A DNA stretch of 42,884 bases from Phoronis australis (taxonomy: Eukaryota > Animalia > Phoronida). Below the pieces are notes generated by a model. That model was not told the origin of the DNA and did not search any database. It saw nothing but the letters and a program-made list of their open reading frames with translations. The stretch spans positions 1-42,884 of the forward strand of contig NMRA01001176.1 of assembly GCA_002633005.1 (NCBI GenBank), in the 5' to 3' direction. The position numbers and the translations under genes were made by a program. How positions within the stretch are numbered: the stretch's first letter is position 1; each line of letters begins with the position of its first letter. Shown piece by piece: positions 1,131 through 40,569 of the stretch.

Positions 1131-3562
1131 TATCTATAAGACCAAAACGAGAATGTGAAACATAAATTGTGAATTTGATGGAACCTATGTTAGCGAGCAG
1201 TGCACAAAAACTGAAGAAACTCTCACACAACATGCAATCAATGAAAAACGCACAAAAAGACAGTCATCATCGAAATTTCCCATAGCTGGTAGTGGATAAT
1301 ATCTAGGAGCCCATTATCCCACGCAAAGACGACTTATTTCAGTTTCAATGATCTCCAAAACTGCGTTGTGTGGAGTTCTAAGGTAACTGTCAAATCAAAT
1401 CTTGTGCGCGCAAAATATGCGAGTTCTTTGAGAGGAGTCCTGTAGGTTTCAAGATTATGACAAACCTTCACGGCAAAAGTCATGTGCCGATCATATACAT
1501 GTAGCCCTGTTGTGCTTTAGGAGCCTTATTTATTTACAATTTAGTAACAGTAATACCGGACTTGTATCATTCACCGTGATAATGGTCAGAGTTTTTGACA
1601 CTAATTGTTGGCTTTAGCCAGCAACCAAGACTCTGCCTTCCATCATCGTCTATTATAGGAATAATTAATTGTGAAACAGTTTGTCGGTGTGAATTAGAGA
1701 ACATTATGTTGTACACAAATGACCCTGAAAAGAAAGATCACTAAACATATTTGTCAATCGTTTTGGTCATATTTTCTCACCATTAAAATAATTAATTATT
1801 TATCAAAGATAATTAATAGTCTTTATACAGATTTTTGTGCTTTAAATGCATTATTAGACCTCATTTTCAGTCATTGACCGATTTTGGATGATCATCAAGT
1901 GATAGAGTTTGAAAAGTACGTGCAATTCAGCCGGACGTCGATCATAATCATCTCTTTATCCAATACACAGTTGGCACTTTGACAACTTCGCAACTCTCTT
2001 ACTTACACGTCACAGCTAACAATGTCCTGGAATCTCAGTACCCTGTACTCTTTCACGTTGACAAATACGTGCGCTAAAATACTTTGGTATGGGTTTCGAA
2101 AATAATTTAAGAAAACCAGAAGGCAACAGTTTTGGAACCCAAACCCAACGATCTACATGTACGCAAACTTGGCGCTTGTTTCAGCCGATGCGTCATAAAA
2201 TATTTTCAGCACTCGCTTACATCATTTTCCTATGAAAAACAGCATATTGACCACAGTCAATGCCAGCATTTGTATAGTACAATGCCGACAATATGCCTTT
2301 GAACGTCTTTGCACTATCCGTTTCTAAAATTGAAAGTCAACATTTCAGAGTACTCTATACTGGCGCATACAAGGCTTGCTGTGAACACAGGCACACGTAT
2401 TGTCATCGACAAAAGCACACAATCTTGCCAGTGTAGAAATTATTACCGTGCGCTACTTGGTTTTATCATATAGGCAGAATACATTCCTTCTTTTGNTGTG
2501 TCTAGAGATTTGACCGAGCGTTTTCTAGATTATCACAGCTATTTAAAAACGTCCCGTTCAGCTCTCACTTGTGAAGCTTAATGTAACAAGTTGAAATAGC
2601 CCGGAATAACAGTCCTAGTTAGGAGGCAGACTGTTAGAGGATTGGTTTTAATAATGTTTTCATGTTTATAAAGGGGTGCACGAAACTATTACATTATTGT
2701 TTGAATCAAACCTGAGTAGCGTATAATGGTTGAAGGAAATCGAAGAAATGTTTGGTTGGCTTAAACCATTTAATCAGCCTTCAAAGTCAAATTAATGAGA
2801 CTGCCAATAGTCTTTAACCGAAAAAAACAAACCATGTAAACGTAGTACATCTACTCGTACGTTTCTCCAGCCGAATAACTGATAATATTTGAAAGAATGA
2901 AAGGGGTGTCCCTATATTCGGAACATCTCTTTAAAGCATGGATTTACTCAAATGGTTCGCGATAGACAGTAGGCGCACACGTCTAAATCTGGACATAGGA
3001 GTAGCTTCGAAAATAGGTACATTTGTACACACTTGCGTAACATTTAAAAATTATCCAAACGGTGTGACGTTATTTGTCAATTTTCGAATTTAGCCTCAAG
3101 TAAATTTTGGTAGTCATGCGCCCACAGACAGGTGATGAATAATTCCAGTGTCACTTCGATGACACGTTATTAGATTTTACGTAGGAATTGAATTGACGCC
3201 TAATATAATATTTCATTGTTTCTTTTCCGGCAACTGTATTGTAGCAAAATGTTCTCCGTTTTGTTAGATGTCTCCTACCACGTGACTGAGGGGAATGGAT
3301 CCTTTGATGATGTCGCATTAATTTACGTTCTTCTGAGTGCAGCTAGACTACTTGTTAATTAAAAACACATCAAACATCGCTCTTTGACTTACACTAACTT
3401 GACACTTTCTCAATCGCAATCCTGCTCAAGAAAACGAAATCGTGGTGAATACTGTTTCAAAAGAACAATGACCTCGGGGGGAATTCAGCGTTATGCGAAC
3501 GGTTATTTTGGAAGAGAGTACCCGTATTTGACGCATACCTTGAATCCCCCCTTCATTCAGAT

Positions 3563-3583
3563 ACGTGGCACAGTCTATAAATA
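3563..3583 (+). promoter_or_regulatory. TATA box with an adjacent ACGTGGCA (CREB3-like/bZIP) motif; putative promoter of the peptide gene
   Basis: TATAAATA at 3576-3583, 60 nt upstream of ATG 3636 (context ACCATGA). ACGTGGCA at 3563-3570. Confidence 0.55.
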
Positions 3584-3635
3584 CAACGCATGGTCATGTT
3601 TTGCCACTACTGGTGAACATCGAAATACTGTTACC

Positions 3636-3696
3636 ATGAGGACAGTGTGCGCTCTGATTCTCCTTGTCCTTGCAGCTGCAATCCACGCAAAACCAG
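3636..3696 (+). CDS. Secreted prepropeptide gene, exon 1 (signal peptide MRTVCALILLVLAAAIHAKP)
   Basis: Signal peptide with basic N-terminus, hydrophobic core and IHA|KP cleavage site. Phase-1 donor CAG|GTAAC at 3697. TATA box upstream. Confidence 0.85.
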
Positions 3697-4438
3697 GTAA
3701 CGAAACTTCGAGAAAGACATTGATTTTTTTTTCGTATATTTATTTCATCATTTTAAATTGTCATTTTCAATTTAATTGCACATATTTTGTATTTGTGGAA
3801 CCAATATGATGACATGGACAACTTGTGAGTGTAAGGTTTAAACTTACTGACAGTTTTGTTCGACTAGAGCGGCCGGTTTTTGTGGTCGGAGTCCTAGTGG
3901 GTAAGGACGACGACGACGACGCTGATATGGATGAGGAAGACGGAGACTACTTTGGTGATACAGGAAACGGTGATAAAACGATGATTGCAATCATTGTTAG
4001 TACCACAGTCACCGTCGTAGTTTTTTGTCATTACAAAGCTCATGATAAAATTATAGTATTGCTTCATATTATTACAGAAAATATCATTGAAGTCATTAAC
4101 AACACCTCGCCCGTCAAAAATAACATTAATTTGGTTTATATAACTTTTTGCTTGTTGTTAAAACTGGTCACAACCTTTTCCTTATACTACTGAGATGAGA
4201 AGTGAATCCCGGAATTGGGAAGATCTGGCATGTCGCTATTGCTTGAGGCTTTCCTCGCTGCATGAAGTGACCCGCCGTGTCAACTTATTGATCTTGGTCT
4301 GAAGAAAATAACGAACCATGTCGAATCACTTATCTGAATAAAGAGGAATTTGACACTGAAGATACTCGCTGTGGTGTATCGTCGATGTTACAAGGAAGCA
4401 TCAAAGTCTTCAGGCATAACATACTGTATCAGCAAAGT

Positions 4439-4775
4439 CAGTGGCAAATTAGGAGGGGGGGGGGGGGGTTAGGAATCGCGCGAATCCGAAGCGCGTAGCG
4501 CCGAGNNNNNNNNNNNNNNNNNNNNNNNNNNNNNNNNNNNNNNNNNNNNNNNNNNNNNNNNNNNNNNNNNNNNNNNNNNNNNNNNNNNNNNNNNNNNNNN
4601 GAAGCGCGTAGCGCCGAGCGGGGGGAGGTCGGGAGGTTGTTTCCCCCCTCCCGTGAAAGATTTTTTTGTTTTTGTAGCTGATTTCGTTTTTCTGGCGACA
4701 TTTTTTAAAAAGTTTTATTTTTGATCCTGTCGTGGCGGGGTTAAATCCCCTGAACCCCCCGTAGATCCGCCTCTG
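4439..4775. mobile_element. CAG(G/T)GGCGGATC-type MITE spanning an assembly gap
   Basis: Ends CAGTGGCAAATT / AGATCCGCCTCTG with 5-bp TSD AAAGT on both sides. Confidence 0.65.
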
Positions 4776-4916
4776 AAAGTGAAGAAGGGAATATAATTAA
4801 TAATATCAGCGAATAAGGGAAACATAACTATAACTGATTGTTTCAAAATAGAGTGACATGTCTTAAAATTAATTCTGACTTCATACTTTGACTTTTTCTT
4901 TTTATTGCTTCACAAG

Positions 4917-4934
4917 GTGCTCCCAGGACAAGAG
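4917..4934 (+). CDS. Secreted prepropeptide gene, 18-nt microexon 2 (GAPRTR)
   Basis: Long polypyrimidine tract and AAG acceptor (4915-4916), strong donor GAG|GTAAGA. Symmetric phase 1-1 keeps the frame. Confidence 0.65.
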
Positions 4935-6370
4935 GTAAGAAGTAATTATTTTCCTCTCTGTACATCGATGCTTTTCTAAATATATCTGATTTACTGTGGT
5001 ATATGTAGAAAATTGGTCATAAGTAAATCATGTTTTCTACCCGAAAGGTCTCGCTATATGTTGTCAATTAAGTGTAATTCACGGGAGAAACAAACTCTAA
5101 TCAGCCAATGGCGGGAAGGGAGTGTGCACGGTGGGCCAGTCAACAAGGCGCACTGAATAGTTGATGTTATTTCGCCTCCGCGAGCCCCGAGGAAGATAAT
5201 GTTACGTTTGAAACTTCATTTACCTCTAGAGATAAAGTGATACTCATTTGGGGGCAAATTTTGCCTTTTTGCAGTTTGGAAAGGGTGATGAGTTTGCGCC
5301 ACATTACTAGCTGGTCTCGACGAATGGTTCCAATCCATTTGTTGGACTAAATGTTGATTTTTGTAAGGCAACCAAGAGTCACGAACAAATTGCTTCTACG
5401 ACAAACCCCTTCCTCCACTGTGTGTAGAAAATTGAAACGAATGGCAGCAATCGTTAATAAGTAATAGTCAAGCTTCTGACTTTTAACTTATGAAACCACA
5501 TATTTCTAAAATTCTTGATGATCACAAAAGCATATTGTAAGAAAACAATTCACGAAAGTTTGTAGTCATGTGATCGTTTTTATCCCCATTTACACCGAGA
5601 TCATCTTACAGGAAACTTGCAATTTTGCTTTGGTTGATTCCCAGCCTTTATCACCCACAGGGACCGTCCTACTACCGAAGTACGGACCTTCCCTGGATGG
5701 GTGGAACGGACCTAAACATGCAAAGGGCTAGAAATAAGGACAGGCGTTCATATAAGTGCGATGGACTCGAAAAATGGGAAGGAAAGAATTTTACAGTCAT
5801 AAATTAAATGGACAAACAAGAAATGTCCGGGAAAGGACGTGTTTGTGTTGGAAAACATTATTTTTTTCACTAAAAGACGCGTCGTTTAACAAGCTTTCCG
5901 TGATATCACATGCACTACCCAGAGAGACAAAAACCCATAGGAAGAGGTCTGAACGTAGTACCCCGTTTTTTTCTTTTATTTAGACCCCGTTTTTTCTTCA
6001 GTAAGAGGTCCACATACTTAAAAATCTGAGCCCGCTGGGTGCGCGCATGTATCAGATAACGTCAACAATGGTGGGTTTTGTCAAATCGTGTACATTTTGT
6101 CCCCACAATACCCACAATATACGTCCTCTCGAAAAACTAAAAATAAAGCGGCTAAAAATGTACGTTCTGTCGACCAATAAGGAAACCTACTGATTTAAAC
6201 CGTTGAAGGAGAATACCACCCGATTTAATTAGTCTTTTTTACCGCCTTAATCGGTCTATATCCACATCACCTCTTATACGGTCGACCTCGCTTTGCCGAG
6301 AGGTGTCGCGCTAACCTGTGAAGAAGGTGACAAACGGCGCAGCGACGTCAGTGGTTCGTTTGCGGAGTGA

Positions 6371-6582
6371 ATGCCGCTATATTGCGGTGCATCGTTTCCG
6401 CTTGTCCGAACTATGAAGCTGCGAAGAAAGCGGGTATATCATTTTTTCGACTTCCTTGAGAGCCTGAAATGCTTAGGTACTGGCTCGCGGTAGTGAAGAA
6501 TGAAAGGCACGCTGTTAGTTAGAAGTATGAGGCCGTGAAACATATCCGTGTCCGTGGCCGGCATTTCGTCGACAGTGATTTC
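6371..6582 (+). pseudogene. THAP zinc-finger remnant of a transposase
   Basis: Reads MPLYCGA..CPNYEAAKKAGISFFRLP*EPEMLRYWLAVVK...HIRVRGRHFVDSDF, matching the THAP pattern (C..C.N, FFRFP, W, HF..DF) with stops and a frameshift. Confidence 0.75.
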
Positions 6583-7329
6583 TCTGACGAATTCGGCTTA
6601 CTAAAGAACTATACATACGTGCCGTTGCCTGTGCATGTTCACGGCGCCTCTCTAGTGTTTCTTGATCGGTTTATTCCGGTTCAAACTGATAGCCTGTGAA
6701 AAACAACGATCCGACCCGTGAAGTCTTTGTCAGATGAGCTCTTGACTAAGTCGGGATTGGCACCGGGCGAGTTGCCATGTAGACGTTTATTATTCTGCGT
6801 TCTGTTTCAAAATGAATTAGTCTCATCCTAACCAATGCTTATACAATGTATGAAACTGAAACAAACTGTGTCTCATTAGATATAATTTGTTATGCCTTTG
6901 CAGTATTCGTGAGCGCAAATGTTGAGAAGCCAGCAATGAATAAACCACTGTGTTACCGGCTTTTGATACCGCCAACAAAAGTAATTGACGGGGCACCGAG
7001 GCCGTGTGAGCGCATGCTAATTCAGAGTTTGATGACAGAAAGCTGTTGTGAAACAATTACTCGATTTTATATGCTATGGTCACATGTTAGGGGAATTTTT
7101 ATTTAGAAATACAAAGACTCAATTCAAATCATCGTTACTCTAAAACCTTTGCCCTGTCGGTCTATGGAAAGGGAACCCGATTTCGCGGCCCCCGACAAGT
7201 AAGTAGATTTTCAGTTTCGTGGCCAATTCACATAAATAATTACGTACACATTATTTCTTTGGCTCACTATTACAGTCTTTTCGTAACTGGAGGTTTAGTT
7301 TCAAACTCAAGCTGGTTTATGTTCGTGCC

Positions 7330-7443
7330 AGTCCCGGCGGCCGCGACGGGCCTGATCATGTTCCGAGCCACTGGCCGAGATAACGAGTCAGTCCGGACGC
7401 GCTGGGCCTGATCGGGTTCCAAGCCACTGGCCGGGATAACGAG
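7330..7443 (+). repeat. Two-copy GC-rich tandem repeat of about 57 nt
   Basis: GGGCCTGATC..GTTCC.AGCCACTGGCCG.GATAACGAG occurs twice. Confidence 0.7.
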
Positions 7444-8775
7444 CGTTTCGTGTGTTTAGAACTCAAAAAATCACAAGTGTAAACAACACAGATCTAGGTT
7501 CTCCTGAGTGTATTTCACGGAAGAATACTTCGTCTTTATCTCCAAACAGACCCCAAACTCCTGCTACGGACCTTGGTAAATTGGCCTGCCGAACTTTGTA
7601 GGCTACGGAGTGTCCAAACACCAATAAAGCCGTGACAGTGAAATAAAACAACACGTTTTTATAAGAACTCGGTGTAGTTTTAAGGGTTTTACATCGAAGT
7701 TTGATGATTTATTGGTGTTAAACGATGAATTCAGACGATAAGCTGACACCAGTAACCCGTGTTGTGAACTGCTGAATGGACTGCGCGTGAAACCAACGAC
7801 GTCACAGGATAATTTCAACACTTCAGTCTGCCGTCAGGTGTCAGGTAACACAACCGAACGTGCCGTTATCGAGTAGAACTACTCGATCTAAACTGATACA
7901 AAATGGGTTGTTTTTTGTGGCATTCTCCTTTAATGGCTATAAAATTGATCTCCACTTGTTCTCAGTAATTCACAAGTTAGCAAAGAACTGTCATTTTGTT
8001 ACTTTTTACTGCCAATTGTAACTTCTGTGTCGTCAGTGTCCAAGTCGGTGATGACTTTTTCATTGATGGACTTATCATTGTCACGTCTATTACCGTCTGA
8101 TCACTATGGGGGAAGACGTTGATAGCGGAGAACTTTCAGTTGAACGGACTGGTTCGACTTCTCGTAGCGACACCTATGGCATCGTGGGGTTGCCGTGTCG
8201 TCGGTGTCGGTGATGTCGAGTGCCAACTATTAGGCCGACAGATTCGACTGATTACTACCGTGTCGTCGATCGACTATGTCTCAACTAACTGCCTTGAAGA
8301 ACCATATAAGGTCTAAGCGCTGCCTCTTTGTCTTTTTGTTCTTTAGTGGACTAATCTACTCACATCGTCAGCTTCAGTTTATCGAGTACCTGAAATCCCT
8401 AAGATTGAATCATGGTCATTTTGGTTCATCTCTCCCCAAATACCTGTCCAATCAATTCTACACGAAGTTGTAACTGCAGTGTGTAGACACTAATCCAAAG
8501 AAGTCGTATAGCTGCAAAGTCTAGAGTAGGTACCATGCAAACATGGTCACATCGCGTGACCTGCTAGTAATTCCTTACAATTCAGAAATACAACCGCCTG
8601 ACTTGCATGTGTTTTGAAGGACTTGGCGTCCATGTTGTGGACATTTACAGTAATATGAATGATGATAACCATGTAGGACTCTGCAGGGTATCTACTGCAT
8701 GTATATACATCTCAACATCATTGCCGTATTCATTTTTCTTCTGAAACCAGGTTTTTCTTTACATTTCTTTTATAG

Positions 8776-8939
8776 CAGCTGCAAAGAATTTCGAATTACG
8801 GATTACTAAGAAAAGCGATGCCGGCATGGCTTCGGTGTATGAGTCTGAAGAAAACGCCAACGTCTTCCTGAACAGGGAAACAAGACGCTGGGGAAGTGAA
8901 GAGTTCCGAGAGTTTAGAGAAGGCTTTGGGCGTCGCTGA
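8776..8939 (+). CDS. Secreted prepropeptide gene, exon 3: gamma-carboxylase-type propeptide plus Glu-rich amidated peptide
   Basis: Polypyrimidine tract and TAG acceptor (TAGCAG tandem acceptor). Phase-1 reading gives AAAKNFELRITKKSDAGMASVYESEENANVFLNRETRRWGSEEFREFREGFGRR-stop (TGA 8937-8939). Joined CDS is 61+18+164=243 nt, 80 aa. Confidence 0.8.
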
Positions 8940-9789
8940 AATCGGAATAGATTTTGTCACCTTTCGCTGTGCTATTCATTTAATGAATGAAATAACATTA
9001 CAAAAATTACATGTACCTCAAAAATAATCTGGCAAATATTCTTGTATCATACTTGTGTGATAGTTTTGAGTTGTCTTGCCCTGGCTGTCACAAGATTTTC
9101 CAATGGAGCACACACTGTGTACTTTTAAGCAAAAATGTGTACTTGCATGCGTCATGCGCATTCAACTAAGTGCTAAATGATTATAATAGATTTAGGCATG
9201 GTTACTCAAGTGATCGTACCTTCTCGAGAATGGTCAGCAAATATTGTTCAGCTTGTTGGGCATGACAACTTTCGCCAATGAACGTCTACTCTAAAAGGAG
9301 GTGAATTATTAAGAGAATTGGAGAACCAGAAACAGAAAGGAGACAGGCGTAATGTTGACCCGGCGAAAGAAGAAAAGCACGATGTCTTCATTGACATCGG
9401 TGCTAGAGGAGGATACAGTAAGGTTTCTGGGAACGGATTTCTAGCAGGCCAAAACCATTTACCCATTAGGAAATTACTGAATCATTTCAAACTTAAGGGG
9501 ATGTTTTTGCCTCCATGAATTTCTTATCAAACCATGCCTACAGGTAAGTACTAAATGTCTACAGTTAACTATCAGAACAACTCTACGCACTACGAGTGCA
9601 GAATCAAAGCAGAACCGTTACAACTCTTGGCATCCATATGGGTGATCATTTGGGAGGATCTGTGTGCCTACTAGTATTAATCTCGAGTGCTTTCAACTGG
9701 AGCATAGATAGTTTGGGCACTGATTCACTAATTATTTAGTGAAAAAGAGTGAACATACAATCACAAACTGGTGTCATATGTTAGCAAAA

Positions 9790-11900
9790 ATGTTATGCAA
9801 AATTCCATTTTTGCGTACAATTTCCTTACGAAGCACTGCAGTCAGATAATTTTGACGTTTTACCCATGTTTCTATGGTCAACAAATTTTATAGTGCAAGT
9901 TTTTAGGTGAATACATTGTCAATTTGCATAATTTATGCAAATTAAGACCGCATTTATACACAATTCTGTTTTTGTTTATAATTTCCTTACCAGGCACTTC
10001 AGGCAGGTCATTTTGATGCTTTGAACCATGTTTCCATGGTCAATGAATTTAATAGTGAAAGTTTTTGGGTGCATACATCGTCAATTTGCATAATTTATGC
10101 AAATTAAGGCCGTCATTATTCAAAATTTTACTTGTTCTAATAGCTATGGAACCAATCATCACAGGTGAATTATCATTATTGCACCTATGTTTCTATGGTC
10201 AATTAGTTAAATTGACACCAGTTTGCATGTTGCTGCATGATAAATTTGCATAATTAATGCAAATTAAGGCCACCATTATTCAAAATTATTTGTTGCTTAA
10301 AGCTCCCTTACCAAGCACTGCACCCATGCTTCCATGGATCGTGAATTTAATGGACCTCCTTTGCTTGTGGATGCATGGTGAATTTGCTTAATATATGAAT
10401 AATATATGCAAATTAAGGCCGCCATTATTCAAAATTCTTCTTTTTCTTGTAGCTAAAGTACCGGGCACACCAAGAAATCTATTTTAACGTCTTTACCCAT
10501 GTTTCTGTGAAATCGGTTTGCAAGTTGTTGCATGATGAATTTTCATATTTTATGCAAATAATGGACACCACTATTCCAAGTACTGTCTCTGCTCTTAATC
10601 TCCATACGGGTGTTACATGTAGATTATTTTCGAATTTATCCCATGGTTGTGATAATTTAAGCAAATTACAGTTGCCATATTCAAAATTCTACTTGTGCTT
10701 ATAAGTGCTCTATCAGACACCAGAGGTTAATTATAAATATTTAAACCCATATTTCCGTAGTTAATGAATTTACCTGTTATGGAATGAAGAGAATCAGGAA
10801 GATGTCAGGAATGAGACTACTGGTCTGGGGAAGAGAAATAGCAAGAAATATATGTCCGCCCCCAAATTGTCACCAACAACAAAGGCATTCAAAGAGAATG
10901 TAAACGTAAACAGATCCCATTACCAGTAAGTCATGTGGTGGAATGTCACCTATTGCATAGTAGTGATGATTAGGTGTGACTGCAAAGGTCATATTTCACG
11001 AAATTCAAGTAGATACAATTGAAAAGCCAATTTTCTACCCCGCACAATATTTTGGACACATTATTAGTAGTGTGTTCACGTTCCGAGTGTTGAATTAGCA
11101 TTTGAAACGTCTTGTGACTGGTCTCCATTCGATAGGTTATTGTCCTGGGTTTATGCAATTAAACAATTTAGTCATCTACTACTGCATATACCCTGGGTAT
11201 CAGACAAAATTAGACATAGTAATGTAGTATGATAAATAATTATTATTTATATTTATGATGTAATAACAGATTACATTAAATTCATCAGTGAAAATACCAA
11301 AATAATTTACATGTGGTGCCCCCCGTAAGAAAGTTACGAGCAGAAACAGAACTTTTGATAATGGCTGCCTTTTTCTACATAAATTATGCTAATTTATTGT
11401 GCAATTTGCAAACTGATTTCATTTACCTAATTGACCATAGGAACATAGGTTAAAATATCATGAGAGTTTACTTGTGGTGCTTGGTGCAGCAGCTATAAGC
11501 ACAAGTAGCTATATGCACAAGTAAAATTCTGAATAAAAGCGCCCTTAATTTGCATTAGTTCTGCAAATTTGCATTAATTATGCAACTTTATCCTGCAACA
11601 ACATGCAAAGCGATTTCATTAAACTAATTGACTAAAAGAATATAGGTGCAAATATCATGATAGTTCGTCTGGAGTGCCTGGTAGAGTAGCTATAAGCACA
11701 AAAAAATTTTGAATAATGGCGGCCTTAATTTGCAAAAAGTATGCAAATTGACAATGTATTCACCTAAAACTTGCATTATTAAATTTGTTGACCATGAAAA
11801 CATGGGTAAACGTCAAAATCATCGGGCTGCAGTGCTTGATAAGGAAATTATAAGCAAAAATAGAATTTTACATAATCGCAACCTTAATTTGCATATTTAA
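9790..11900. repeat. Large foldback built from tandem units of about 170-180 bp
   Basis: Left arm repeats TTGCATAATTTATGCAAATTAAGGCCGCCATTATTCAAAATT-like units. About 11370-11900 carries their reverse complement, e.g. about 9820-9950 versus 11720-11860. Confidence 0.75.
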
Positions 11901-15170: not shown

Positions 15171-16539
15171 TTAAAGTCCACCAAAGATTATATGACACCT
15201 ATTTTGATAAACACTTTTAATAGTGCTCTGCGATCAGGGGAATTTCCTCAGTCCTGGTGTAACGCTATATAATGGCCGTTGCATAAGCAAGGGGACGTCA
15301 ATGATGTAAATAATTGTCGGTGTATTTCACTCCTGCATGTTCTCGGGAAAATTTTTACGAAACTTATAAACGTTCGTGTAACAGATCGGGCCAACGATAA
15401 CGACTTATTTAACGAAGCTCAGGCTTGCTTCAGAAAAGGATATAGCACAATAGACCAAATTTTTACCTTACAAGGAATTGTTCATAAGTATTTGGATGTG
15501 CGCAGGGGCAGATTTTATGCTACATACGTGAATTTTTCTCAGGCTTTGACAGCATTTCACATACATTTTTGTGGAATACGCTAAAATTGATGAAAAGTAT
15601 GTATTCAAAGATAAGAGCGGGTGTAAGAACTGAACGTGGTTAACTGAATTTTTCAGTAATAATATTGGTAATCGCCAAGGGTGTACGCTTAGTCTTTTTA
15701 TTTAGTATGTATTTGAACGAGTTTGTTGATTACTTAAAAGAATCTTTAAATAGCGGATTTTACGTAAATGAGAATGTACCTCAAATTTGTATGTTGCTAT
15801 ACGCTGATGATATGGTTGGTTGTGCAGAGACAGCATTTAAACTACAGCAACAAATCAACGTTCTGCATGAATACTGTCAGGATTGGGGTATGAAAATCAA
15901 CTTCACAAAAACAAAAATAACGGTATTTAGAAAGGCGGACCATTGAGAAAATACGAAAAATGGCATTTTGGAAATGACAAAATTGATGTCGTCTTATCAT
16001 ATAAGTACCTCGTTATTTGCCTTACTCCTAAGTAAGTTTGGACGGAAGCTACGGAAACTTTGTCTCACCAGGCACAGAAAGCAAATCTTTTCAATAAAAC
16101 GTTTTCAGTCAAAATGTGGACAACTTTCACCGAAAATTGAAATCGAAATTTTTGATCAAATGGTATACCTAATCATTAGCTATGGCAGTGGGATTTGGGA
16201 TTTAAAGAATATTCTAGTATCGAGCACGTCCAATTGAAATTCTGTAAGCAACTGCTGGGTGTTGGAAATAACTGGGAACTGGGAAGGTATACAATTTATG
16301 CAAAGCTGTTCGTTAAACTGATCAAGTATTGGTTTAAATTGTTGAAAAATGCCAGGATATCGAAATCCAAAATCTGTCCATGACAAGCTTGTCACATTGG
16401 ATGAGATTGGTAGGAAAAATTGGGCTGCATCTGTAAGGGATTTGCTGCAAAGATGTGGCTTTGGATTGGCACATGTATGGCACAATCAGGGAGTTGGCTG
16501 CGAAGCATCTTTTCTTGTCATTTTTGATCAGCGAATTAA

Positions 16540-17456
16540 AGATTGTTTTTTGCAGGACTGGAGCTTTTCTGTGGAGAATAGAATGTACAAAATCAAGTTT
16601 AACAACGGAAAGTGTGTTTGAAATTGTTAAGCAACAAGGGTTAGACGAAGATTTGGAATTTGTTATAATTTGGTTTCGGGATGGAATAGCGCCTGATCCG
16701 GATGTGCTGTTGTTATCATCGGAGACAGCCAAAGTTTACTGGACAAATAAATAATTATTCTCGGATGCGAATGTGCTTGTTTTACGATCACGACGTAAGT
16801 AAACGTCCGTTAATTTTGGTTCCGCCGAGTTTGCGGTGTGAAATTATCCGGGTTCATCGCGATCTTCTGTCTGCAGCACCAGGGCCAGGAAAGGATTCAT
16901 TCAAAAATCCGGTTAAAATATTATTGCCGTCAAATGCGGAATGACGTCATCCGGTTTGTTGAAAGTTGCGCTGTCAGTAATGAGAGAAAGGGAGTTGNAG
17001 ATTGTTTTTTGCAGGACTGGAGCTTTTCTGTGGAGAATAGAATGTACAAAATCAATTTTAACAACGGAAAGTGTGTTTGAAATTGTTAAGCAACAAGGGT
17101 TAGACGAAGATTTGGAATTTGTTATAATTTGGTTACGGGATGGAATAGCGCCTGATCCGGATGTGCTGTTGTTATCATCGGAGACAGCCAAAGTTTACTG
17201 GACAAATAAATAATTATTCTCGGATGCGAATGTGCTTGTTTTACGATCACGACGTAAGTAAACGTCAGTTAATTTTGGTTCCGCCGAGTTTGCGGTGTGA
17301 AATTATCCGGGTTCATCGCGATCTTCTGTCTGCAGCACCAGGGCCAGGAAAGGATTCATTCAAAAATCCGGTTAAAATATTATTGCCGTCAAATGCGGAA
17401 TGACGTCATCCGGTTTGTTGAAAGTTGCGCTGTCAGTAATGAGAGAAAGGGAGTTG
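16540..17456 (+). repeat. 458-bp tandem duplication separated by a single N (probable assembly artefact)
   Basis: 16540-16997 and 16999-17456 differ at about 3 positions, with N at 16998. Confidence 0.9.
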
Positions 17457-17950
17457 TTCGGAAAGCACGAACCACTTATGTAAAAAACCAAGCCGGTTGC
17501 CCAATGGCACGGGTTCATATTGAGTATTTAGGTCCATTGCCAGTGACGGAACGTGAAAATTATCATATTTTGGTGGTTGTTGACCAATTTACAAATTAGA
17601 TCAAATGCATTCCGGTACCTGATCAACGGTCGGAAACTACAGCCCGGGTGGTCGCTGATCAAATATTTTCGCGTTACTGGTGTCCTCTACAAATCTTCTC
17701 GGAGAGGGGTTCGAACTTTCAAAGTGAAGTGTTTAGATCGGTGTGTGCTCCATTATGTAAGCACCAACGGCTTACCGACCTAGCGCCAATGGTCAAACGG
17801 AGAGGGTAAGCCCGGCGGACCAAAATGAACGCTATTCTGTGCTACGTGCGCCACATTCTCGTGTGAGCCGGTCAACGGGGTTTGCAACGAACCAATTGAT
17901 GTTGGGTCGGCATGTTATGACGATGTAATGTTTGCAATTTGATCCGAAAT
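16590..17950 (+). mobile_element. Gypsy-like LTR retrotransposon integrase fragment (decayed)
   Basis: LILVPPSLRCEIIRVH, HQGQERIHSKIRLKYY..QMRNDVIRFVESCAVS (HHCC zinc finger), PMARVHIEYLGPLP, ILVVVDQFT, GSNFQSEVF, NGQTER. Confidence 0.85.
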
Positions 17951-22253: not shown

Positions 22254-24414
22254 TTACATCTTGGTTGTTTCTGAATCATTTAACTCCGAGCAGTTGTTGT
22301 AATCGCTACACTCACTCTTAGAGGTCTTCCGTTGACCTGCGTTGCTGGATAACGAACTATTGGGGCTAGTTCTCCTTGAAACAAACTTACGGTACTTCAA
22401 AAAGATAGTTTTCGTGCATATAAAAGCAAAAAATATGAAGAGCCCTTGCAGGGAATTGAACGTGATGAACAGATACCATAACACGTGACTTCCAGTAAGA
22501 GCTCCTAAATAGCCAAAGATCCACGTGCTTCCCATAACAGTGGAAAGTTTAACTGTTATCAGAAACACGCGATTATTTTCACCTTTTTCTTGATATTCTT
22601 TCTGACTTGACGTTTGACTTTTATAAGCTGGATAATAGTTAACACAATGAAAGTGTTATTGATGAATATGAGAATCGCTAAAGGCATCGCAAACCCATAA
22701 AGAATTGCTTCGAATCCGGAAATCCAGCACATTTTCTCGTCTGCGTATCGGAAAGGTACTTCAGTGGCGAATTCCAAGACAATGCATGAGGCAATAATCA
22801 ATAAAGGACTCAGCAACGAATACATCGCGTACTTATAAATTGCATACGAAGATGGTTTTTGTGCCTTCAAAACGTTATGAAAGGTTTTGAAAACACAAAA
22901 ACACATACTGTTCATCCAAAAGAATGCGCACAACCACAGAAAATGTTCAACTACAGCCACTGTCTTACATAATGCTGGAATTTCAGTACGATCAATTGCG
23001 GCTAACATTATGAGTTGTGCCATAAAAAGTGTTATAGCGAGGTTCATCATAATTTGACCAGGCAGTGTTCGAAGTTCCTTGAAAAGTGCGTACGTCATCA
23101 CAAATATTGCAAGTCCACACAAACTGATCAGGCTTCCGGCAACCGTCAGTTTGTACTGAGCTTTGTTGTATTCAAAAAAACGTAAACCAGACCCATTCGT
23201 AAACGGATTGCAAACATACAATAAATTGCCTTGAATGAAGTAGTCACCTGGCTGAAACGACAAACCAGAGTTTACATATGCAATATCGTCCTTCACTTCA
23301 TACTCGTCATCTCTGTATCTGATCATTGGACACTTAAGATCGAAAGAATTATTGGCGGTATTGGTATGATTCAAAGACGTATTGCTCAACTTATTTATAT
23401 TCACAGTTTCATTTCCGCACGATCCATCAAGCATTCTCCATTTTCTCCGTGGGCAAACTAATGGACGACATTTCTTTGCCAGTTTGTCATAGACGCTGTT
23501 TTCAGAACAGGGCACAAATGGCCTACTTATCTTACGACTAAATTCGTCGCTCATCCCTGTGAAATCTATTAGATGCGAAAATCCCCAATATCCATCAATG
23601 GGGAGTGTCCGAGGGTCAACACAAAATAGTCTTCGCCATCCTCCACGAGTACAACGCCCGAATTTCAACTTCACGACATCATCATCAGTATCGGGGAAGT
23701 AGTCTGAGAAATACATGTATGACCAACACTCTACCGCGGTACGAGGGCAACTGTTCCTACATCCTGTGCTCTTAGGTTCCACGAGTACGTTACAGTTGTG
23801 TGTGAACGATGGTACCTTGTAAACTAACTTAAAACCGCTCGAGTTGTACAGTTTTCGTATCAGTGCCGTACCGGTAAGATTTTTCACAGTGCTATAAAAC
23901 AGCCGCTTTTGCTCTTCGTATGACTTCATATTGTGGATTTCAAAGCTGCTTCGCCAAAAGGCTCCCCCTTGAAGAAGTTGTGACACTTCCACACGATGAC
24001 AGATTGCGCAATAGATGTTCCGGAAGGAGTAGTACCTCCCATCTTTCAAATATCCGTTCACAGGCAAAACCTGGAACACGTCGTCATTGTTTTTAGAGTG
24101 GCACTTGTTAGTAATAATCGCGTCGTTAAAATCACCAGGACAACGCGAGATGAGTATACTTCCGAAAGACGCAGTGGCAAAATCTAACTCAAGACACTCT
24201 GTGTAAGGTTTGATTGATGAGAAATTCTTTGCACTTGGTTTGTAATCGTGACAACAATCACCGAAATCGGTACAGAACTGATCACAATAACACACTTGTA
24301 TCTGACGTTGTTCCCTATCTTCTACGAACGGCGATGAGCAAGAAATACCACAGGCCTGATACAACGATGGCTTAGAAGGCTGAGAATCACAGGGAACTCC
24401 GCACGTTTGGAACA
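22254..24414 (-). CDS. Family-B Methuselah/adhesion-like GPCR, large coding exon (somatomedin-B-like domain, Cys-rich ectodomain, 7TM) with one frameshift
   Basis: CYCDQFCTDFGDCCHDY (24242-24292), FRNIYCAICH, LRTLPGQIMMNL, CKTVAVVEHFLWLCAFFWMN, CWI, then VKLSTVMGSTWIFG and FNSLQGLFIFFAF in another frame. Acceptor TTTTCAG| before 24414. One extra base in the T5 run at 22584-22588 restores a single frame. Confidence 0.88.
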
Positions 24415-24601
24415 CTGAAAACAGCACACGTCATTGGGTATCTATTGCATGTAAGGTAGTGTTTACTTGATAGGTGTTAAACTACAAGTCATCTTCGAAT
24501 CACAAAACCAATGACGTTTACACCACAATAAGTGTAGACAAATGTTGCTCATATGTGCAGTCCTGCTCACATGTGTGCGCCTCTATCAATGTTTTGAAAG
24601 C

Positions 24602-27181: not shown

Positions 27182-28048
27182 GGATTGGTCTAAAACACCT
27201 CGACCCCCAAACCCCTCGACCCACAAACCCCCACGATCCACGACCCACAGCCCCCTCGACCCACGACCTGTGGCAATAGATGTATCTTTGCGCTTTCCAC
27301 ACATTTCATAATTATATTGCGTCGCTAAACGACCTTCCAATAAGACATACCTACATGCGAGTCTGCTCTGGCTCAAGTCTGGTGGTTAAAAACAGAAAGT
27401 GGCGTGAGAACGCTGATCCAAAATAGCGAATTGTGAGCGCGCTATCCTTGTCAAAAAAGGTCCACGAGCGGATAACAATGGCCCAGATCTACTTAGCTTA
27501 GGGAGAGAGTGCGTTAGCGTGAATGTACAAAATTTCACATTTATATTATTAGCGTTCTGTTACATACATGTACTCGTTTACAATATAATCCTTAATCACG
27601 TTGACATACATTTTTAGTTAATACTTTTGTTTCAAACTGTGATAACTGAAGAAATTACATATTCATCTGTTCTTCGCACTCGCCCTCCCCCGAAAAAGTT
27701 GGAACCTGCCATTCACTGAAGAGCAGACAAAACGATTACACCCTATCGGGAACGTCATTTAACTTGTAACGTTGGTCTTTGATTTGATTTGGGCGCGTTG
27801 TTTGTTCTGCTTTTGGATTACAAACTTGCCGAACCGACTCTCTTAATTGCAAACGAAAACGGGAAAAGCCAGCCGAGCTAGCGGCCCGACTCGTTGGTCC
27901 TGTAAGTCAATGCTTGTTCTATCCTCAGATTGAGTAGAGCTTGTATAGGCTGGTTCAGGGGGTTGTTGATCGTGGGTCGAGGGGATCTTGTGTCGAGGGG
28001 GTCGTGGATAGAGGGGGTGTGGGGGTCGAGGGTTTTTTAGAAAAATCC
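27182..28048. mobile_element. Mutator-like non-autonomous element
   Basis: TIRs GGATTGGTCTAAAACACCTCGACCCCC / GGGGGTCGAGGGTTTTTTAGAAAAATCC, subterminal CTCGACCCAC repeats, 9-bp flanks CTATTTTTA / CTATTTTTT. Confidence 0.7.
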
Positions 28049-35000: not shown

Positions 35001-35622
35001 GGAAACTCACTCATCTAGGGAGTTTTATTGAAGACAGCATAGTTTTGAAGAGAAGCTGCTGTGAAAAAGTCACCCTTGACTTCTGTACATCACGTACCAT
35101 ACACCTCTTATTTTGGGAGCACTCCCACCCAGGACAATATGAATATGTGCTGCTAGCCTACCCGGCATCGGGTGAGTTTCCTAAAAGTAACACTTGGTTC
35201 CACTCAATAAACCTGTTATTCAGTTGGTTAACTGGTGGGGATAACATCACCGAACGATGTTTATAGAAACTAATTTCTAAAAACTTACCAAGTAATGTTG
35301 TGTAGTCTCCGAATGGAACTGCATAGTCATAGGCATAGAGCACACACGGAGCTTCAGCATCCACACACTTTTTGTAAGTTAGTTGGCCCTGTTGACAGCA
35401 ATTGTCCACGAATATAGTAAACTTAGGTCTTTTGGGAATTTGTGGCCACCTGTCGAAGACTTGCACCACGGAAATTAGCAGTAATAAGGCTTAGCGCGAC
35501 GACGTATTTTGATAAAAATTCCATCTTTTACCAGTTGTTTACATGCAGACAGCCACGCATGCGCAATTCAATCACCACTAGTACAGCAGCGACACCGTGA
35601 GGAGAATTCTCTGAATAGCCCC
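32098..35622. mobile_element. 3.5-kb TIR DNA transposon with AT TSD (ISL2EU-like termini) and decayed internal coding fragments
   Basis: AT|GGGGCTATTCGGAAAAT ... GAATTCTCTGAATAGCCCC|AT, subterminal GTACTAGTGGTGAT / ATCACCACTAGTAC. The right end has a second copy at 1-364. Confidence 0.7.
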
Positions 35623-37199
35623 ATTAAATTTCTTCGATCGAATATCAAGTTAAATAAAGATTGCAAAGCCGTCAAAATATTGTGACATTAATATTAAGTT
35701 GTGATTTTGCAAAGAATAAACAAACTAGTAAAATCTTACAAAAACAATTAGGCTAAAAAGTTGAACGGAACTCAAAAAAGTGGAACTTTTGTAAGCCTAT
35801 TGTGCAGTTTTGCTCAATCACTCATCGTTGAGATAGAAGATAAAGTCGCACATCAAAATACGCCCTCCCAAAATTGGAATAAAAAAGACAAAAGACAGGA
35901 AATTCGTGATCCATAGGTCTCCCAAATTGGTCCTTATACTTGAGGCGCTGTGGGTTAGCTGATCAGATAACCACGTTGTTTGAAAAAGACGCTTGAAGCT
36001 CCACTAAAGCATTCCAACCTTGTTTAATGAATGCTGAATTTGCAGTCGAATTCAAAGTTCCTGTTTACTTCATAAGATTGCCACGAGGTGGTGTATTTCG
36101 TGGTTGCTTTATTTGTAAGTAAACTAACAAAAATCAAAGTGACTGTCGTTAGGGTTCCACAATGTTTATCGACGATCTTGAAGCTAGGATTTTCATGTCA
36201 TACTGTTGGATGAAAATATTGTATGCTACATGTATGTATACAACGGATTACAGAAACGCATTATTACATAAGTCAGATGTTAGTTTAGAAATCTGTTTTG
36301 TTGAAATGGTTAATTTTTTGTGTTCATCGTAATGGTGGGCTCATGTGGAGTGCAGAATGATGTTGCTCAACTTAAATTGCGAGTCATTTCAGCCGCCATC
36401 TACAGCTGTGTCATTTAAGCTGATGAGAAACTAGGATGGTAATGAACTAGGGAGGGGAGATCTTTTACGGTTGCACTGGGGGTCTTGCTAGAAATTGTTT
36501 AGCAAATACATAGTATACCGTGAAACCCATGGACAGTAACGGTATTTACTCGTAAAATCTGTAACAAACTTTTCAATCGCATAAAATCGGTCAATTGTTT
36601 TGTGTTTCAATGTTTGTGAAGAAAAAAATAATGCGCAGCGGATGCATACACAATAAAATGCTGACACATAGGTAATTTAAATCGGTCTCAATATTTTCTA
36701 CATGTAGTTTGCCATACTTCTGTTTTTCTATTTTAGACATTTGTCCTCCTGTCAAGTACTTAGAAATTCATTTTGTAAATTTTTATAATCAAATCTGAAT
36801 GACTTATTTGTGATGCCTACATTTTAGTTTGGTATTCATACTTTCTAAGCCAAATAGCCACATTAAATTTTATGTTTAATTTTCTCATTACCACAATTTT
36901 AGAAATCGGGAATGGCTTTTTATGCTGAAGAAGTGGCTTCCGCTGAAGTTGAAGACCTGCCGATTATTAGAAAAGGTTGGGTATGGGGGGCCAACCCCCC
37001 TCCCGACCTCCCCCCATTCGGTGCTATGCGCATCTACAATCGTGGTTCAGTTTGCGCAAATGCTTCCAGCCGGACAAAATGTTGGGCCCCCCCTTGTGAT
37101 ATCCTAGATCCGCCACTGTTCTTATATCCTACAATGAGGCAGCAAAGGAAAACGATGATAATCATGCAACGACTTTCCATGGACAGCAGTGNAAAAAAA

Positions 37200-37839
37200 A
37201 AAAAAAAAAAAAAAAACAACGCGACCAAATCAAATCAAAGACCAACCAACCTTACAAATGTTGTTCCCGGTAGAGTGTAATCGTCTCGTCTGCTTTTCAG
37301 TGAATTGCACATTTAACTTTTTACGGAGAGTGCGGGGAACCGACAAAATTGTAATTTCACCAGTAAATACAGTTCGAAAAAACAAACCAAACTGTTAACT
37401 AAAAAGTAATTCAACTTTATATGAAGTATATTGTAAACGAGTTTTACAATATAATGCAAATAATTAAAGTATGAAATTATGTACATTCTCGTTATCGTAC
37501 TGTTTCCCTAAGATTACTATGGAACTGGGTCATTGATAGCCGCTTGTGGAACTATTTCCGTGACTCTGATAGCGCGCCCAATGCGCTATTCAAGACCATC
37601 GGCGTTCTCACGCCACCTTTTGATTTTAATCACCAGACTTCAGCCAGAGCAGAGTCGCGGGTTGGCATGTCTTATAGGAAAGTCACCCAGCCACGTAATA
37701 ATATAATAATAATATGTAAAGAGCGCACAGATACATTGCCACAGGTCGTTGGTCAAGGTTCTCGTGGATCGAGGGGTTGTGGGTCGAGGGAGTCGTGGGT
37801 CGAGGGCTGTGGGGATCGAGGGGGTTTCAGAACATTCCA
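37200..37839 (-). mobile_element. Second, inverted and diverged copy of the 27182-28048 element, truncated near the N at 37192
   Basis: Reverse complement matches about 27190-27810 in blocks, e.g. CTGCTCTGGCT.AAGTCTGGTG, GTGGCGTGAGAACGC, TTGGTCTTTGATTTGATTTGG. Confidence 0.75.
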
Positions 37840-38891
37840 CAGAAAATCTTTTTTCAATATACAAGATACAACAATCATGAAATCAAAATAACCAACGTTT
37901 GTAGAGTTCATGTCTGTAACCCTATTCACTGGAGAGAACATAAGCGACTTTGCACAAAAATAGAGCTATGTATGGCATCTGGGACTATGCTAGTGAAACA
38001 TTCAGGAGTAAAAAACTCGATTGAAAAATGCAATAGATATTCAAGACAGACTGATTATACTGTGCTGGTGCAGCGACCCCACATATTTGAAAAATTCTCA
38101 TTTTAGTACATTTTGCATGGGCGTACCTAGGGGAGGGTGGGGCTCGGGGGCTCGACACAAAATTCCACAAAGGACACAGGAAATCGTAGGCCTGAACCTA
38201 GTGGACCCCGTTTTTCTTTTTTATGTCCTCGTTGATTTTATTTAGTAAAAGGTCCCCATGCCGAAAATTTGAACCACCCTATATTTCAGGCTGTGTGTGC
38301 GCATGATTTGAGGTTTCAAAATGTATAACTCATCAACAGGCAATGAAAGTAACATGTTTTATCAATATTTTGCCAAGTTTCATTGTCATAGCAGCTTGGG
38401 CAGATTTGACATAGCAGTGTATTAAGCATAACCGCAAAATGGCATAACCGAGGGGGTAGTGTAGCAAAACTACTAAATGAGGGTGGTAAATTGGTACATG
38501 TATCTTCTTTTAAGACATCTGTATAACAATATATTGGTATCACTAAACAATGCCAAGTGAATAATAGTTCAATAGTTTTCATTCAACGACAAAACTACAA
38601 AGCTAAAATTGGACATTTTTTCAGCGTGAAAACCTGGTTGCGAAGCCGAAAAATTGTTTCGGCCTATAACTTTGGTGATAGAGCGTACCAATTTTGGGAA
38701 ATCTTTTACTACTGTTTATACATGTAGATCCCATAAGACTACCTATTTGTCAAATTCGGTGGAAATTGGATGATCCCCACCTTGCCGATACATGGCTGGT
38801 GCTTTCGTGGACTAGTACTGAAGTTAATTACGGACTTCCAATCCAGTTGACATAAAGATTGAATGTTAAAATATAGCTAACTAGGTAAATA

Positions 38892-39912
38892 TAGATTATT
38901 ACATGGCGAAGTTGTTATCCCCCGTTATCTAGAGCCCGAGTGAATTTTCGAGAATTATTGCCCGAGGGGCGTTATACCACATATTGCAATGAATCGATCT
39001 ACCTTTTTCGACTCGCCTCGGCTTTGTAACTACTTCCTATGTCAGAGGCCCAGGGTCGGAGGTCGTGACCTTTTAAGAAAAGCCGAGCTATTTTTGTCAA
39101 ATAATGCTTTAATCAAAACCAATTGAAAAATAAAACAAACTAGAAATAAAGTGAATCTATAAATTAAGGTTTAGCAACTAATATAGCTTACTACACATTT
39201 TATCACGCTAAGCTTGGACCGGGAAAATATCGTCTGCTAAAGTAGGTTACCACTAATAACTGACTATAAGGCTCAAGTCAAAGTATCCGACGACACGATA
39301 CCCGCATTCAAATTGGAGATCGGTGATTTCCAAGTGAGAGAACACGAGACAAAAATTTCACTTACTTAAAATATCGTTTTCATGGAAATTATGCGTCTTA
39401 TTTTTCAAAGCGTATAAATGTCGGTGCAATGCCCTTTGCTGAACATGCGATTGTTGCGCGTGCTCATTTAAGTACTCTATTTTCAGGTTCGATGACGTCA
39501 GCCGCTGAGTGGCGTAGTGGTAAAGTCGGCGACTCGAAATTCTTGAGGCCCTGGTTCAAATCCGGCCTCGGTTTCCCGCCAAAATGATATCTCACCAGTG
39601 AGATAACTTTATGGGTTATTACACGGTTGTATCTGCCATTCCAGGCTAATATTGTGGGTCTTTGACATAGAAAGTAGTTACAAAGCCGAGGCGAGTCGAG
39701 AAAGGTAGATCGATTCATTGCAATGTTTCTCGTTCAGTATGTGGGATAAATAGATTATTACATGTTCTCAATCGTTATCCCGCTTATCTAGAGGCCTCAT
39801 GGATTTTGGAGAATTATCACCCTCGGGGCTAACGCTCCTCGGGCAAAAATTCTCCAAAATTCACTCGGGTTCTAGATAACGGGGTGTTACGACTTTGCCA
39901 TGTAATAGTCTA
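38892..39912. mobile_element. Composite palindromic element with nested inverted repeats
   Basis: Ends TAGATTATTACATGGC / GCCATGTAATAGTCTA with about 80 bp of inverted match. Inner inverted pair at about 38983-39050 and 39655-39723. 39751-39912 is itself a hairpin. Confidence 0.75.
39501..39573 (+). pseudogene. tRNA-like sequence (pseudo-tRNA or SINE head)
   Basis: A box TGGCGTAGTGG, B box GGTTCAAATCC, T stem CTGG/CCGG, loop CTCGAAA (CGA). Acceptor and anticodon stems are mismatched and there is no long Ser variable arm. Confidence 0.6.
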
Positions 39913-40569
39913 CATGTATAGGTAGCTTTCAGATTTTTACGACTCGTAACGTTTCCGGCTTGTTCTCGGCTTCGGCAAATCGATTTAAATTGTATTTATG
40001 TACACGAATTCTCGAAAACGGGTCTGTGAATTCCATTGACACTTTCAAAGTTTAATGTTTGTTTACCAATCTCCAAAACGGAGCTAGGATTTTCCTTTTA
40101 AATGGCTAGTTTTTTTGAAGGCCCGCAGCCAGCATTCCGTGAGGGTGGTCGGAATTCAAGCTAGATCGGTAGACCTTTGATTATTGCAATCGTCCACACT
40201 GTAGGGTTTTCGGTAAGGCCCTTGACTCTTAATAAGGGGGCGGGGGGGTAGGAGGGGAGTGAAGTTTTTATACACAAAGATGATTCTCAGCTCATGTTCC
40301 TGAGATAAGATTGAATTCGTAATATCAGAAATGAGGATGTCGTGACGGTTGCAAAATACGGGACTCAGATTCGGATATAATGTGGTCCAGAAAGACAACG
40401 TTCTCGCTTTACCTCCTGTTAAACTTTCAAATTAAACTGCTTAAATAAGTGATTACATTTCATTGCATACTCGGACGGAAATATTTAGTAGGAGAATGAT
40501 TGACGAAACTTTTGTCTGGTTGTATATTTGCGTGTTACTTAAGTTGCTTACATCGCTGGATATGGGAAC

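Follow-up and report, generated by a model that had tools for sequence, protein, structure and literature searches.

The window analysed here is the whole of a 42,884-nt stretch of DNA, contig NMRA01001176.1 of Phoronis australis, and all positions refer to its forward strand. Near its left end lies a gene of three exons, which is transcribed and spliced and encodes a precursor of 80 residues; its predicted product is a 13-residue, Glu-rich peptide with an amidation signal (Table 1). An earlier note made from the letters alone had proposed this gene and had read its product as a substrate of gamma-glutamyl carboxylase (GGCX), which depends on vitamin K. The gene itself is borne out by RNA reads, and carboxylation is considered more probable than not, essentially on account of a candidate docking site in the pro-region.

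Splicing in silico with GT donors, AG acceptors and phases 1/1 yields an open reading frame (ORF) of 80 codons, and the coordinates and translation of the earlier model were reproduced. Exon 2 is the only in-frame exon with strong splice signals in a scan of 3760-8700, and because skipping this microexon would also preserve the frame, reads were needed to decide on it. RNA evidence comes from the raw stranded runs X2, X3 and X4 (about 18-19% of each run was read), which were chosen by species label and most reads of which match exon 3 at at least 99%, and from a contig, X1. In fact, the letters of the microexon stand between exons 1 and 3 in 397 of 400 (X2), 520 of 527 (X3) and 950 of 956 (X4) junction reads; this count uses its 14 inner letters, the aligner having assigned the GT and AG, which are shared, to the flanks, and gives exactly 4917-4934. 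The joint of 4934 with 8776 (GT..AG) is independently present in 51 (X2), 79 (X3) and 96 (X4) reads, and both junctions of the model, 3696/4917 and 4934/8776, are thus found in the stranded reads of the three runs. The acceptor at 8776-8778 is a tandem one: in 4, 3 and 10 reads (X2, X3, X4) splicing shifts to a minor site 3 nt downstream, and one Ala is lost.

The transcript is on the plus strand, first mates being on the minus strand (the usual stranded library is assumed). The 5' ends of the molecules fall at 3614-3621, with peaks at 3618 and 3621, about 40 nt below the TATA box, and the true transcription start is probably near 3606. An upstream in-frame ATG in the ORF 3363-3809 is ruled out as the start because the RNA begins downstream of it. 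At the other end, transcripts stop at about 9010-9024 and polyA follows in the X1 contig. The polyadenylation signal differs from the window in 13/13, 35/35 and 46/46 reads and in the X1 contig, owing either to an allele or to an assembly error. Reads of the exon-3 region number 585 (X2), 880 (X3) and 1542 (X4) among 12.75, 11.31 and 11.05 million, which corresponds to about 46, 78 and 140 per million.

Table 1. Features of the three-exon gene in the window
Feature	Position	Strand	Basis and remarks
TATA box (TATAAATA)	3576-3583	+	Sequence; RNA 5' ends downstream
Exon 1	3614-3696	+	Short 5' untranslated region (UTR); coding sequence (CDS) 3636-3696 (61 nt); phase-1 GT donor; predicted 18-residue signal peptide plus 2 residues
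Exon 2	4917-4934	+	18-nt phase 1-1 microexon; basic N-terminal pro-region; junction reads
Exon 3	8776-9019	+	CDS 8776-8939 (164 nt): rest of pro-region, candidate docking site, mature peptide, stop 8937-8939; 3' UTR
Candidate gamma-carboxylase recognition site	8835-8870	+	V-17, Y-16, A-10, N-9, F-7, L-6 (factor IX numbering); ANVF included
RETRR, furin-type R-4/R-1 plus dibasic RR	8874-8888	+	Sequence; cleavage predicted
Predicted mature 13-mer WGSEEFREFREGF	8889-8927	+	Glu 4, 5, 8, 11; Phe 6, 9, 13; predicted amphipathic helix
Gly-Arg-Arg-stop amidation signal	8928-8939	+	Sequence; amidation predicted from established PAM/carboxypeptidase E chemistry
Polyadenylation signal	8991-8996	+	AATAAA in RNA reads, AATAAC in window

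Both introns have features of their own. Intron 1 contains, at 4488-4618 and within a G/C-run repeat, a gap of 95 N (4506-4600) between identical 18-nt flanks; a hidden exon inside the gap is ruled out, since reads link exon 1 straight to the microexon. Intron 2 harbours at 6200-7936 an element of 1.7 kb that ends in 20-nt terminal inverted repeats and is covered deeply, on both strands, by divergent reads; it is likely a non-autonomous DNA transposon. The intron-containing X1 contig is ruled out as a separate coding isoform by an in-frame stop at 8742-8744 in the window, and it probably arose when the assembly path ran through unspliced RNA.

The coding sequence is variable. One extra G behind 8889, in a four-G run (8889-8893), is carried by 79 of 227 (X2), 135 of 402 (X3) and 0 of 647 (X4) reads; because exon 3 shows no other frequent difference among those listed, the insertion marks a recent allele or a near-identical copy. 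It is likely a segregating null allele, and nature may thereby have provided a control for loss of function. All of X2-X4 carry C3676T, which replaces Ala14 of the signal by Val. The X1 contig differs from the window at 16 of about 516 letters, and its coding changes (one silent, two of amino acids, of which one lies at -3, and in the pro-region an in-frame gain of 5 residues) avoid the key docking residues and the mature peptide; they are too few to show constraint.

Residues 3-16 of the precursor are strongly hydrophobic (hydropathy above 3) and end in small residues of the Ala-x-Ala-like kind, so that a signal peptide of 18 residues is predicted, with its cut site placed by hydropathy. The signal is followed by a basic pro-region, an acidic stretch, RETRR, the 13-mer and Gly-Arg-Arg-stop. 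Convertases, carboxypeptidase E and PAM turn such a layout into a C-terminal amide. The claimed architecture of a secreted amidated peptide precursor, with a signal (by hydropathy), a basic cleavage site and a terminal Gly plus basic residues, is present, and the predicted peptide would very probably be secreted, cleaved and amidated. On a helical wheel, Glu 4, 8 and 11 lie on one face and Phe 6, 9 and 13 on another, and a single-sequence AlphaFold2 (AF2) model gives, at low confidence (pLDDT 59), a helix over residues 40-50 of the exon-3 product. The spacing of these Glu is i, i+4, i+7, as that of gamma-carboxyglutamate (Gla) in osteocalcin and conantokin-G, and the exact Glu pattern of the peptide arises in 6 of 715 random placements. 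Mineralisation Gla proteins bear Gla at i, i+3/i+4 along one helix face (PMC12312033), and conantokin-G, with its i, i+4, i+7, i+11 Gla spacing, folds with divalent ions (PMC3832412).

A connection with GGCX is suggested by the pro-region. The exon-3 product was compared with 177,635 PDB sequences; its best match is to factor IX, namely the propeptide and the first part of the Gla domain (9bvk_P; E 0.76 for 53 residues, 0.32 for 33 residues), and a second factor IX entry, 9l21_B, ranks third (E 0.73). The factor IX alignment is in register with the cleavage site, and between -12 and -4 it has 7 identities in 9 positions. Numbered as in factor IX, the pro-region reads V-17 Y-16 E-15 ... E-12 N-11 A-10 N-9 V-8 F-7 L-6 N-5 R-4 ... 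R-1. From cryo-electron microscopy, the GGCX docking subsites are described as hydrophobic at -17 to -15 with an invariant Phe-16, Ala or Gly at -10, and hydrophobic at -7/-6, with Phe-7 in MGP (PMC13187478); a second such study places docking at -17, -16, -10, -7 and -6 and finds a linker of 7-8 residues "just enough" for the first Glu (PMC12647623). Conserved propeptide positions are given as -16, -10, -6, -4 and -1, with disease variants at -9, and non-conserved residues matter too (PMC7395276), while the docking site of MGP is ANxF with a Phe six residues upstream (PMC8006282). In the phoronid pro-region Val-17 is hydrophobic, Ala occupies -10, Phe-7, as in MGP, and Leu-6 provide the hydrophobic pair with one of the Leu, Val or Ile expected at -6, and Arg is found at -4 and -1 with one additional Arg after. 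ANVF fits the ANxF of the MGP type, with a Tyr six residues upstream. By these residues, the pro-region matches two docking subsites and, in part, the first (-17 to -15). When the 44 pro-region residues preceding the final RR were shuffled in 400,000 trials with two registers allowed, the four-position pattern (aromatic -16, Ala/Gly -10, hydrophobic -7, L/V/I -6) arose 199 times, and 72 times with -17 added. Moreover, among 8 matches to a loose form of the pattern in the window, only this pro-region precedes more than one Glu.

Several observations weigh against carboxylation. Tyr stands at -16, where human substrates have the invariant Phe, and nothing on the tolerance of Tyr at this position was found in the available parts of the GGCX literature, including PMC4555119 and bioRxiv 2025.02.09.637231; likewise, Glu stands at -15, which is hydrophobic in human substrates. 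The PDB match is not significant alone (E 0.3-0.8), a porin scores almost equally (E 0.58-1.2), and the 22-residue pro-segment alone gives no PDB match. Because the docking pattern was set post hoc, Tyr being allowed once seen, and a genome scan covers many precursors, the shuffle result raises the odds without settling the matter. The spacing of the Glu is weak evidence since an i, i+3/4, i+7 triad is common among random placements (109/715, 15%), and it may be no more than a consequence of the Phe-Arg-Glu repeat. The Glu are located 10, 11, 14 and 17 residues past L-6, as against 12 and 13 in factor IX, so the first of them, Glu4, perhaps lies too near the docking site; with so short a linker it may escape carboxylation, and three or four Gla are therefore predicted. 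The extra G, in about 35% of X2 and X3 reads, ends the mature peptide after three residues, which speaks against a vital role. No homologue was found on which conservation could be tested, and the GGCX of P. australis itself was not seen. The reading as a GGCX substrate consequently keeps in its favour the register-correct docking positions, factor IX as the top PDB match, the helical Glu spacing and the absence of a named family, against Tyr-16, Glu-15, the E values and the missing homologue. As for the product with four Gla foreseen by the earlier note, Glu 4, 5, 8 and 11 are all there, and four Gla is only an upper bound.

Relatives were sought with the 53-residue exon-3 product (P0001) rather than with the whole precursor. 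Among 5.8 billion proteins with lengths of 29-93 residues, matching by words gave no candidate; Pfam at E up to 10 gave 0 families, the ESM Atlas held no usable match, and of 595 pattern matches in metagenome contigs 0 were confirmed. HMMER over 1.84 billion representatives gave 2 matches, both artefacts of long or repetitive proteins: P0005 was dropped as five summed repeats of 25% identity from an unrelated repeat protein, and P0006 (6954 residues) on the sole ground that 0 stretches passed alone. A neighbouring G protein-coupled receptor (GPCR) of the window finds, in the same collections, best matches just 23-28% identical; the proteome of the species therefore seems absent from them, and the blanks do not prove the gene unique. 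No paralogue was found in the window or, down to 80% likeness, in the RNA reads, so that the search for paralogues and homologues, covering window, reads and protein collections, ended with none. Four sequence words of the precursor are absent from 8.1 million PMC papers and 0.36 million preprints, and topic searches listed no such peptide; supplements, the usual home of neuropeptide catalogues, and subscription papers fall outside this scope. The claim that the peptide belongs to no named family agrees with the Pfam result and with the absence of these words.

Six bacterial HTTM proteins, used as seeds over a range limited to 798-2275 residues, led to no animal GGCX at E 1e-20. In three Bacteroidota genomes (L122, L123, L125) the direct neighbour of the HTTM (carboxylase-like) gene encodes a predicted lipoprotein, about 370-390 residues long and ending in DADGD/DNDGD, which we take to be imelysin-like, and at two further loci (L126, L127) the HTTM gene adjoins a ribF-like gene.

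Comparison with known systems places the product outside the Gla-domain, MGP/osteocalcin and conantokin families. With factor IX propeptides (PDB 9bvk/9bvr, 9l21/9l25/9wf3) the precursor shares V-17, A-10, N-9, L-6, R-4, R-1, a furin-type site and a Glu pair soon past the cut, whereas it has Tyr-16 and Glu-15 and a first Glu two residues nearer. In contrast to factor IX and the other Gla-domain proteins (PF00594), it lacks the Gla domain of about 45 residues and the Cys loop (0 Pfam families, no Cys past the signal), and 13 residues are followed by the amidation signal. MGP/osteocalcin (MGP/BGP) and GRP/UCMA have in common with it a small secreted precursor, ANxF with an aromatic residue six upstream, a furin site and the i, i+4, i+7 Glu spacing, but the phoronid gene has neither the ExxxExC core nor a Cys in the mature peptide, 3 exons instead of 4-5, and an amidation signal. 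According to PMC8006282, lamprey and amphioxus lack MGP/BGP; GRP is reported absent from invertebrates (PMC13204790). The conantokins of the Conus B-superfamily, whose precursors and family features are described in PMC4278219 and PMC3914837, share a short, Cys-free single product from a signal/pro/mature precursor, an adjacent Glu pair followed by Glu at +3 and +3, and amidation. There is no Pfam match to them (for the exon-3 product; signal peptides were not compared), and the phoronid peptide differs in its Trp-Gly-Ser start, its vertebrate-type docking site and the absence of any sign of a gene family. Docking sites of Conus differ from the vertebrate type. By analogy, the gene would be like a hybrid of a vertebrate vitamin K-dependent propeptide and a conantokin-style product.

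If the docking site functions as its residues suggest, the signal peptide would be removed after residue 18, and in the endoplasmic reticulum the segment V-Y...A-N-V-F-L would occupy the propeptide cleft of GGCX while downstream Glu are carboxylated, Glu5, 8 and 11 likely and Glu4 as a borderline case. Convertases would then cleave behind RETRR as well as at the C-terminal RR, a carboxypeptidase would trim the ends, and PAM would convert the Gly so as to leave a Phe-amide. Ca2+ could bridge Gla 4, 8 and 11 on one face and lock an amphipathic helix, with Phe 6, 9 and 13 on the other. Short, calcium-binding amidated peptides like the one proposed are familiar chiefly from the venom of cone snails. 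We regard carboxylation by GGCX as somewhat better than evenly supported by the precursor, and it is with much the same leaning that we propose a GGCX substrate yielding an amidated helix with 3-4 Gla, most likely a secreted ligand. Given the C-terminal amide and the single-copy layout, a ligand of a receptor or channel, be it a hormone, a neuropeptide or a defence peptide, is favoured over a protein of the mineral matrix; of the carboxylated cases, the most likely is an amphipathic helix that is folded by calcium and serves as a ligand. The narrower proposal of a vitamin K-dependent peptide hormone endogenous to a non-vertebrate, which would combine a docking site like those of factor IX and MGP with a neuropeptide-style amidated product, is offered tentatively.

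As the main alternative, the precursor could be that of an ordinary single-copy amidated neuropeptide or hormone, with an acidic spacer, a propeptide-like motif due to chance and unmodified Glu, which we hold unlikely without thinking it far-fetched. Signal, RR and GRR require no GGCX, and acidic spacers ahead of basic sites are common in neuropeptide precursors; Ser-Glu-Glu would then be a possible phosphorylation site, and the Tyr amid acidic residues a possible sulfation site. A PDB match at E 0.3-0.8 only, and the departure of Tyr-16 and Glu-15 from the human rule, agree with this explanation, but it requires that a coincidence with a probability of about 5e-4 should also fall in register, ahead of a furin site and of a peptide rich in Glu, and leaves to chance the 7 factor IX identities in 9 positions; nor does the exon-3 product fall in a Pfam family or do the words of the precursor occur in the literature searched. 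Very improbable is a decaying, dispensable, still-transcribed remnant of a longer Gla-protein gene. The frameshift in about 35% of the reads of 2 of the 3 raw-read runs would suit it, as would the two amino-acid changes and 5-residue insertion of X1 against one silent change, whereas a clean GRR-stop, a polyA site, efficient three-exon splicing and 46-140 reads per million on exon 3 do not look like decay, and the X1 changes, though too few for a test, leave docking residues and mature peptide untouched.

Two further alternatives accept the carboxylation and differ from the ligand reading in function. A regulator of shell or skeleton that binds mineral or calcium surfaces, like osteocalcin and MGP, would explain the ANxF docking motif, as in MGP, and the i, i+4, i+7 spacing, which in mineralisation proteins brings Gla to the same side of a helix; the order of a signal exon and a short exon also loosely resembles that of MGP/BGP. 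Such a role is improbable for 13 residues with no ExxxExC core or cysteine and with a C-terminal amide typical of ligands. Equally improbable is a venom or defence peptide convergent on conantokins, which are Cys-free, Gla-rich, often amidated single peptides of signal/pro/mature precursors; the tolerated loss-of-function variant would fit a dispensable gene, and the depth of the X1 contig is high (2262). Toxins usually form gene families, while here there is no paralogue in the window or in the reads at 80% likeness, no Pfam match, and no N-terminal Gly-Glu of the kind found in conantokins Pr1 and Pr3.

The preferred reading, a carboxylated and amidated ligand, bears on what GGCX does outside vertebrates. 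Kulman et al. reportedly described, in 2006, vitamin K-dependent proteins of Ciona intestinalis as non-vertebrate GGCX substrates, these being Gla-domain proteins and not short amidated peptides. GGCX is present in invertebrates (PMC5578492, PMC7564532), although fly GGCX knockouts have no phenotype (PMC5578492), and the anemone protein Sym32, an earlier motif-based proposal of an invertebrate substrate that was left without proof, is a caution (PMC3141003). GGCX and VKOR occur across invertebrates, yet in the parts of the literature available the proven invertebrate substrates are cone-snail toxins, and the gene is a small, expressed and directly testable candidate for the question of what invertebrate GGCX modifies. 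It also supplies a search pattern for further candidates: docking motif, furin site, Glu-rich peptide, G-R/K. Should the peptide prove carboxylated, an invertebrate would have a peptide ligand under the control of vitamin K. The docking code of vertebrate type would then be more ancient than the work on MGP/osteocalcin suggests, or would have been reinvented more widely. If the peptide is a hormone as well, the gene would found a class of GGCX substrates that has not been described so far, and it may represent a living outgroup of the MGP/osteocalcin lineage, which has no reported one.

As regards the rest of the window, its CpG observed/expected ratio (0.91) and GC content (39%) are of a non-vertebrate kind, and it contains no microsatellites of six or more units; cone-snail DNA differs from it in microsatellite content. 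The GPCR mentioned above is encoded on the minus strand at 22257-24430, where one long ORF joins Somatomedin-B and 7tm_2 domains of the adhesion type (DUF8401-like cluster). Near 22560-22655 its frame changes, 7tm_2 matches lying to either side, and no start Met was found; it is a pseudogene, an assembly error or a gene with a missing upstream exon. Broken reverse-transcriptase and integrase zinc-finger fragments lie at 15273-17806, and within them a 459-nt tandem duplication (16540-17456) surrounds a single N at 16998, possibly an assembly overlap. Dispersed direct and inverted repeat copies and a region of 162-nt tandem units are found at 1-368 and 35250-35626, 27198-27814 and 37203-37805, 9793-11895, and 38875-39927.

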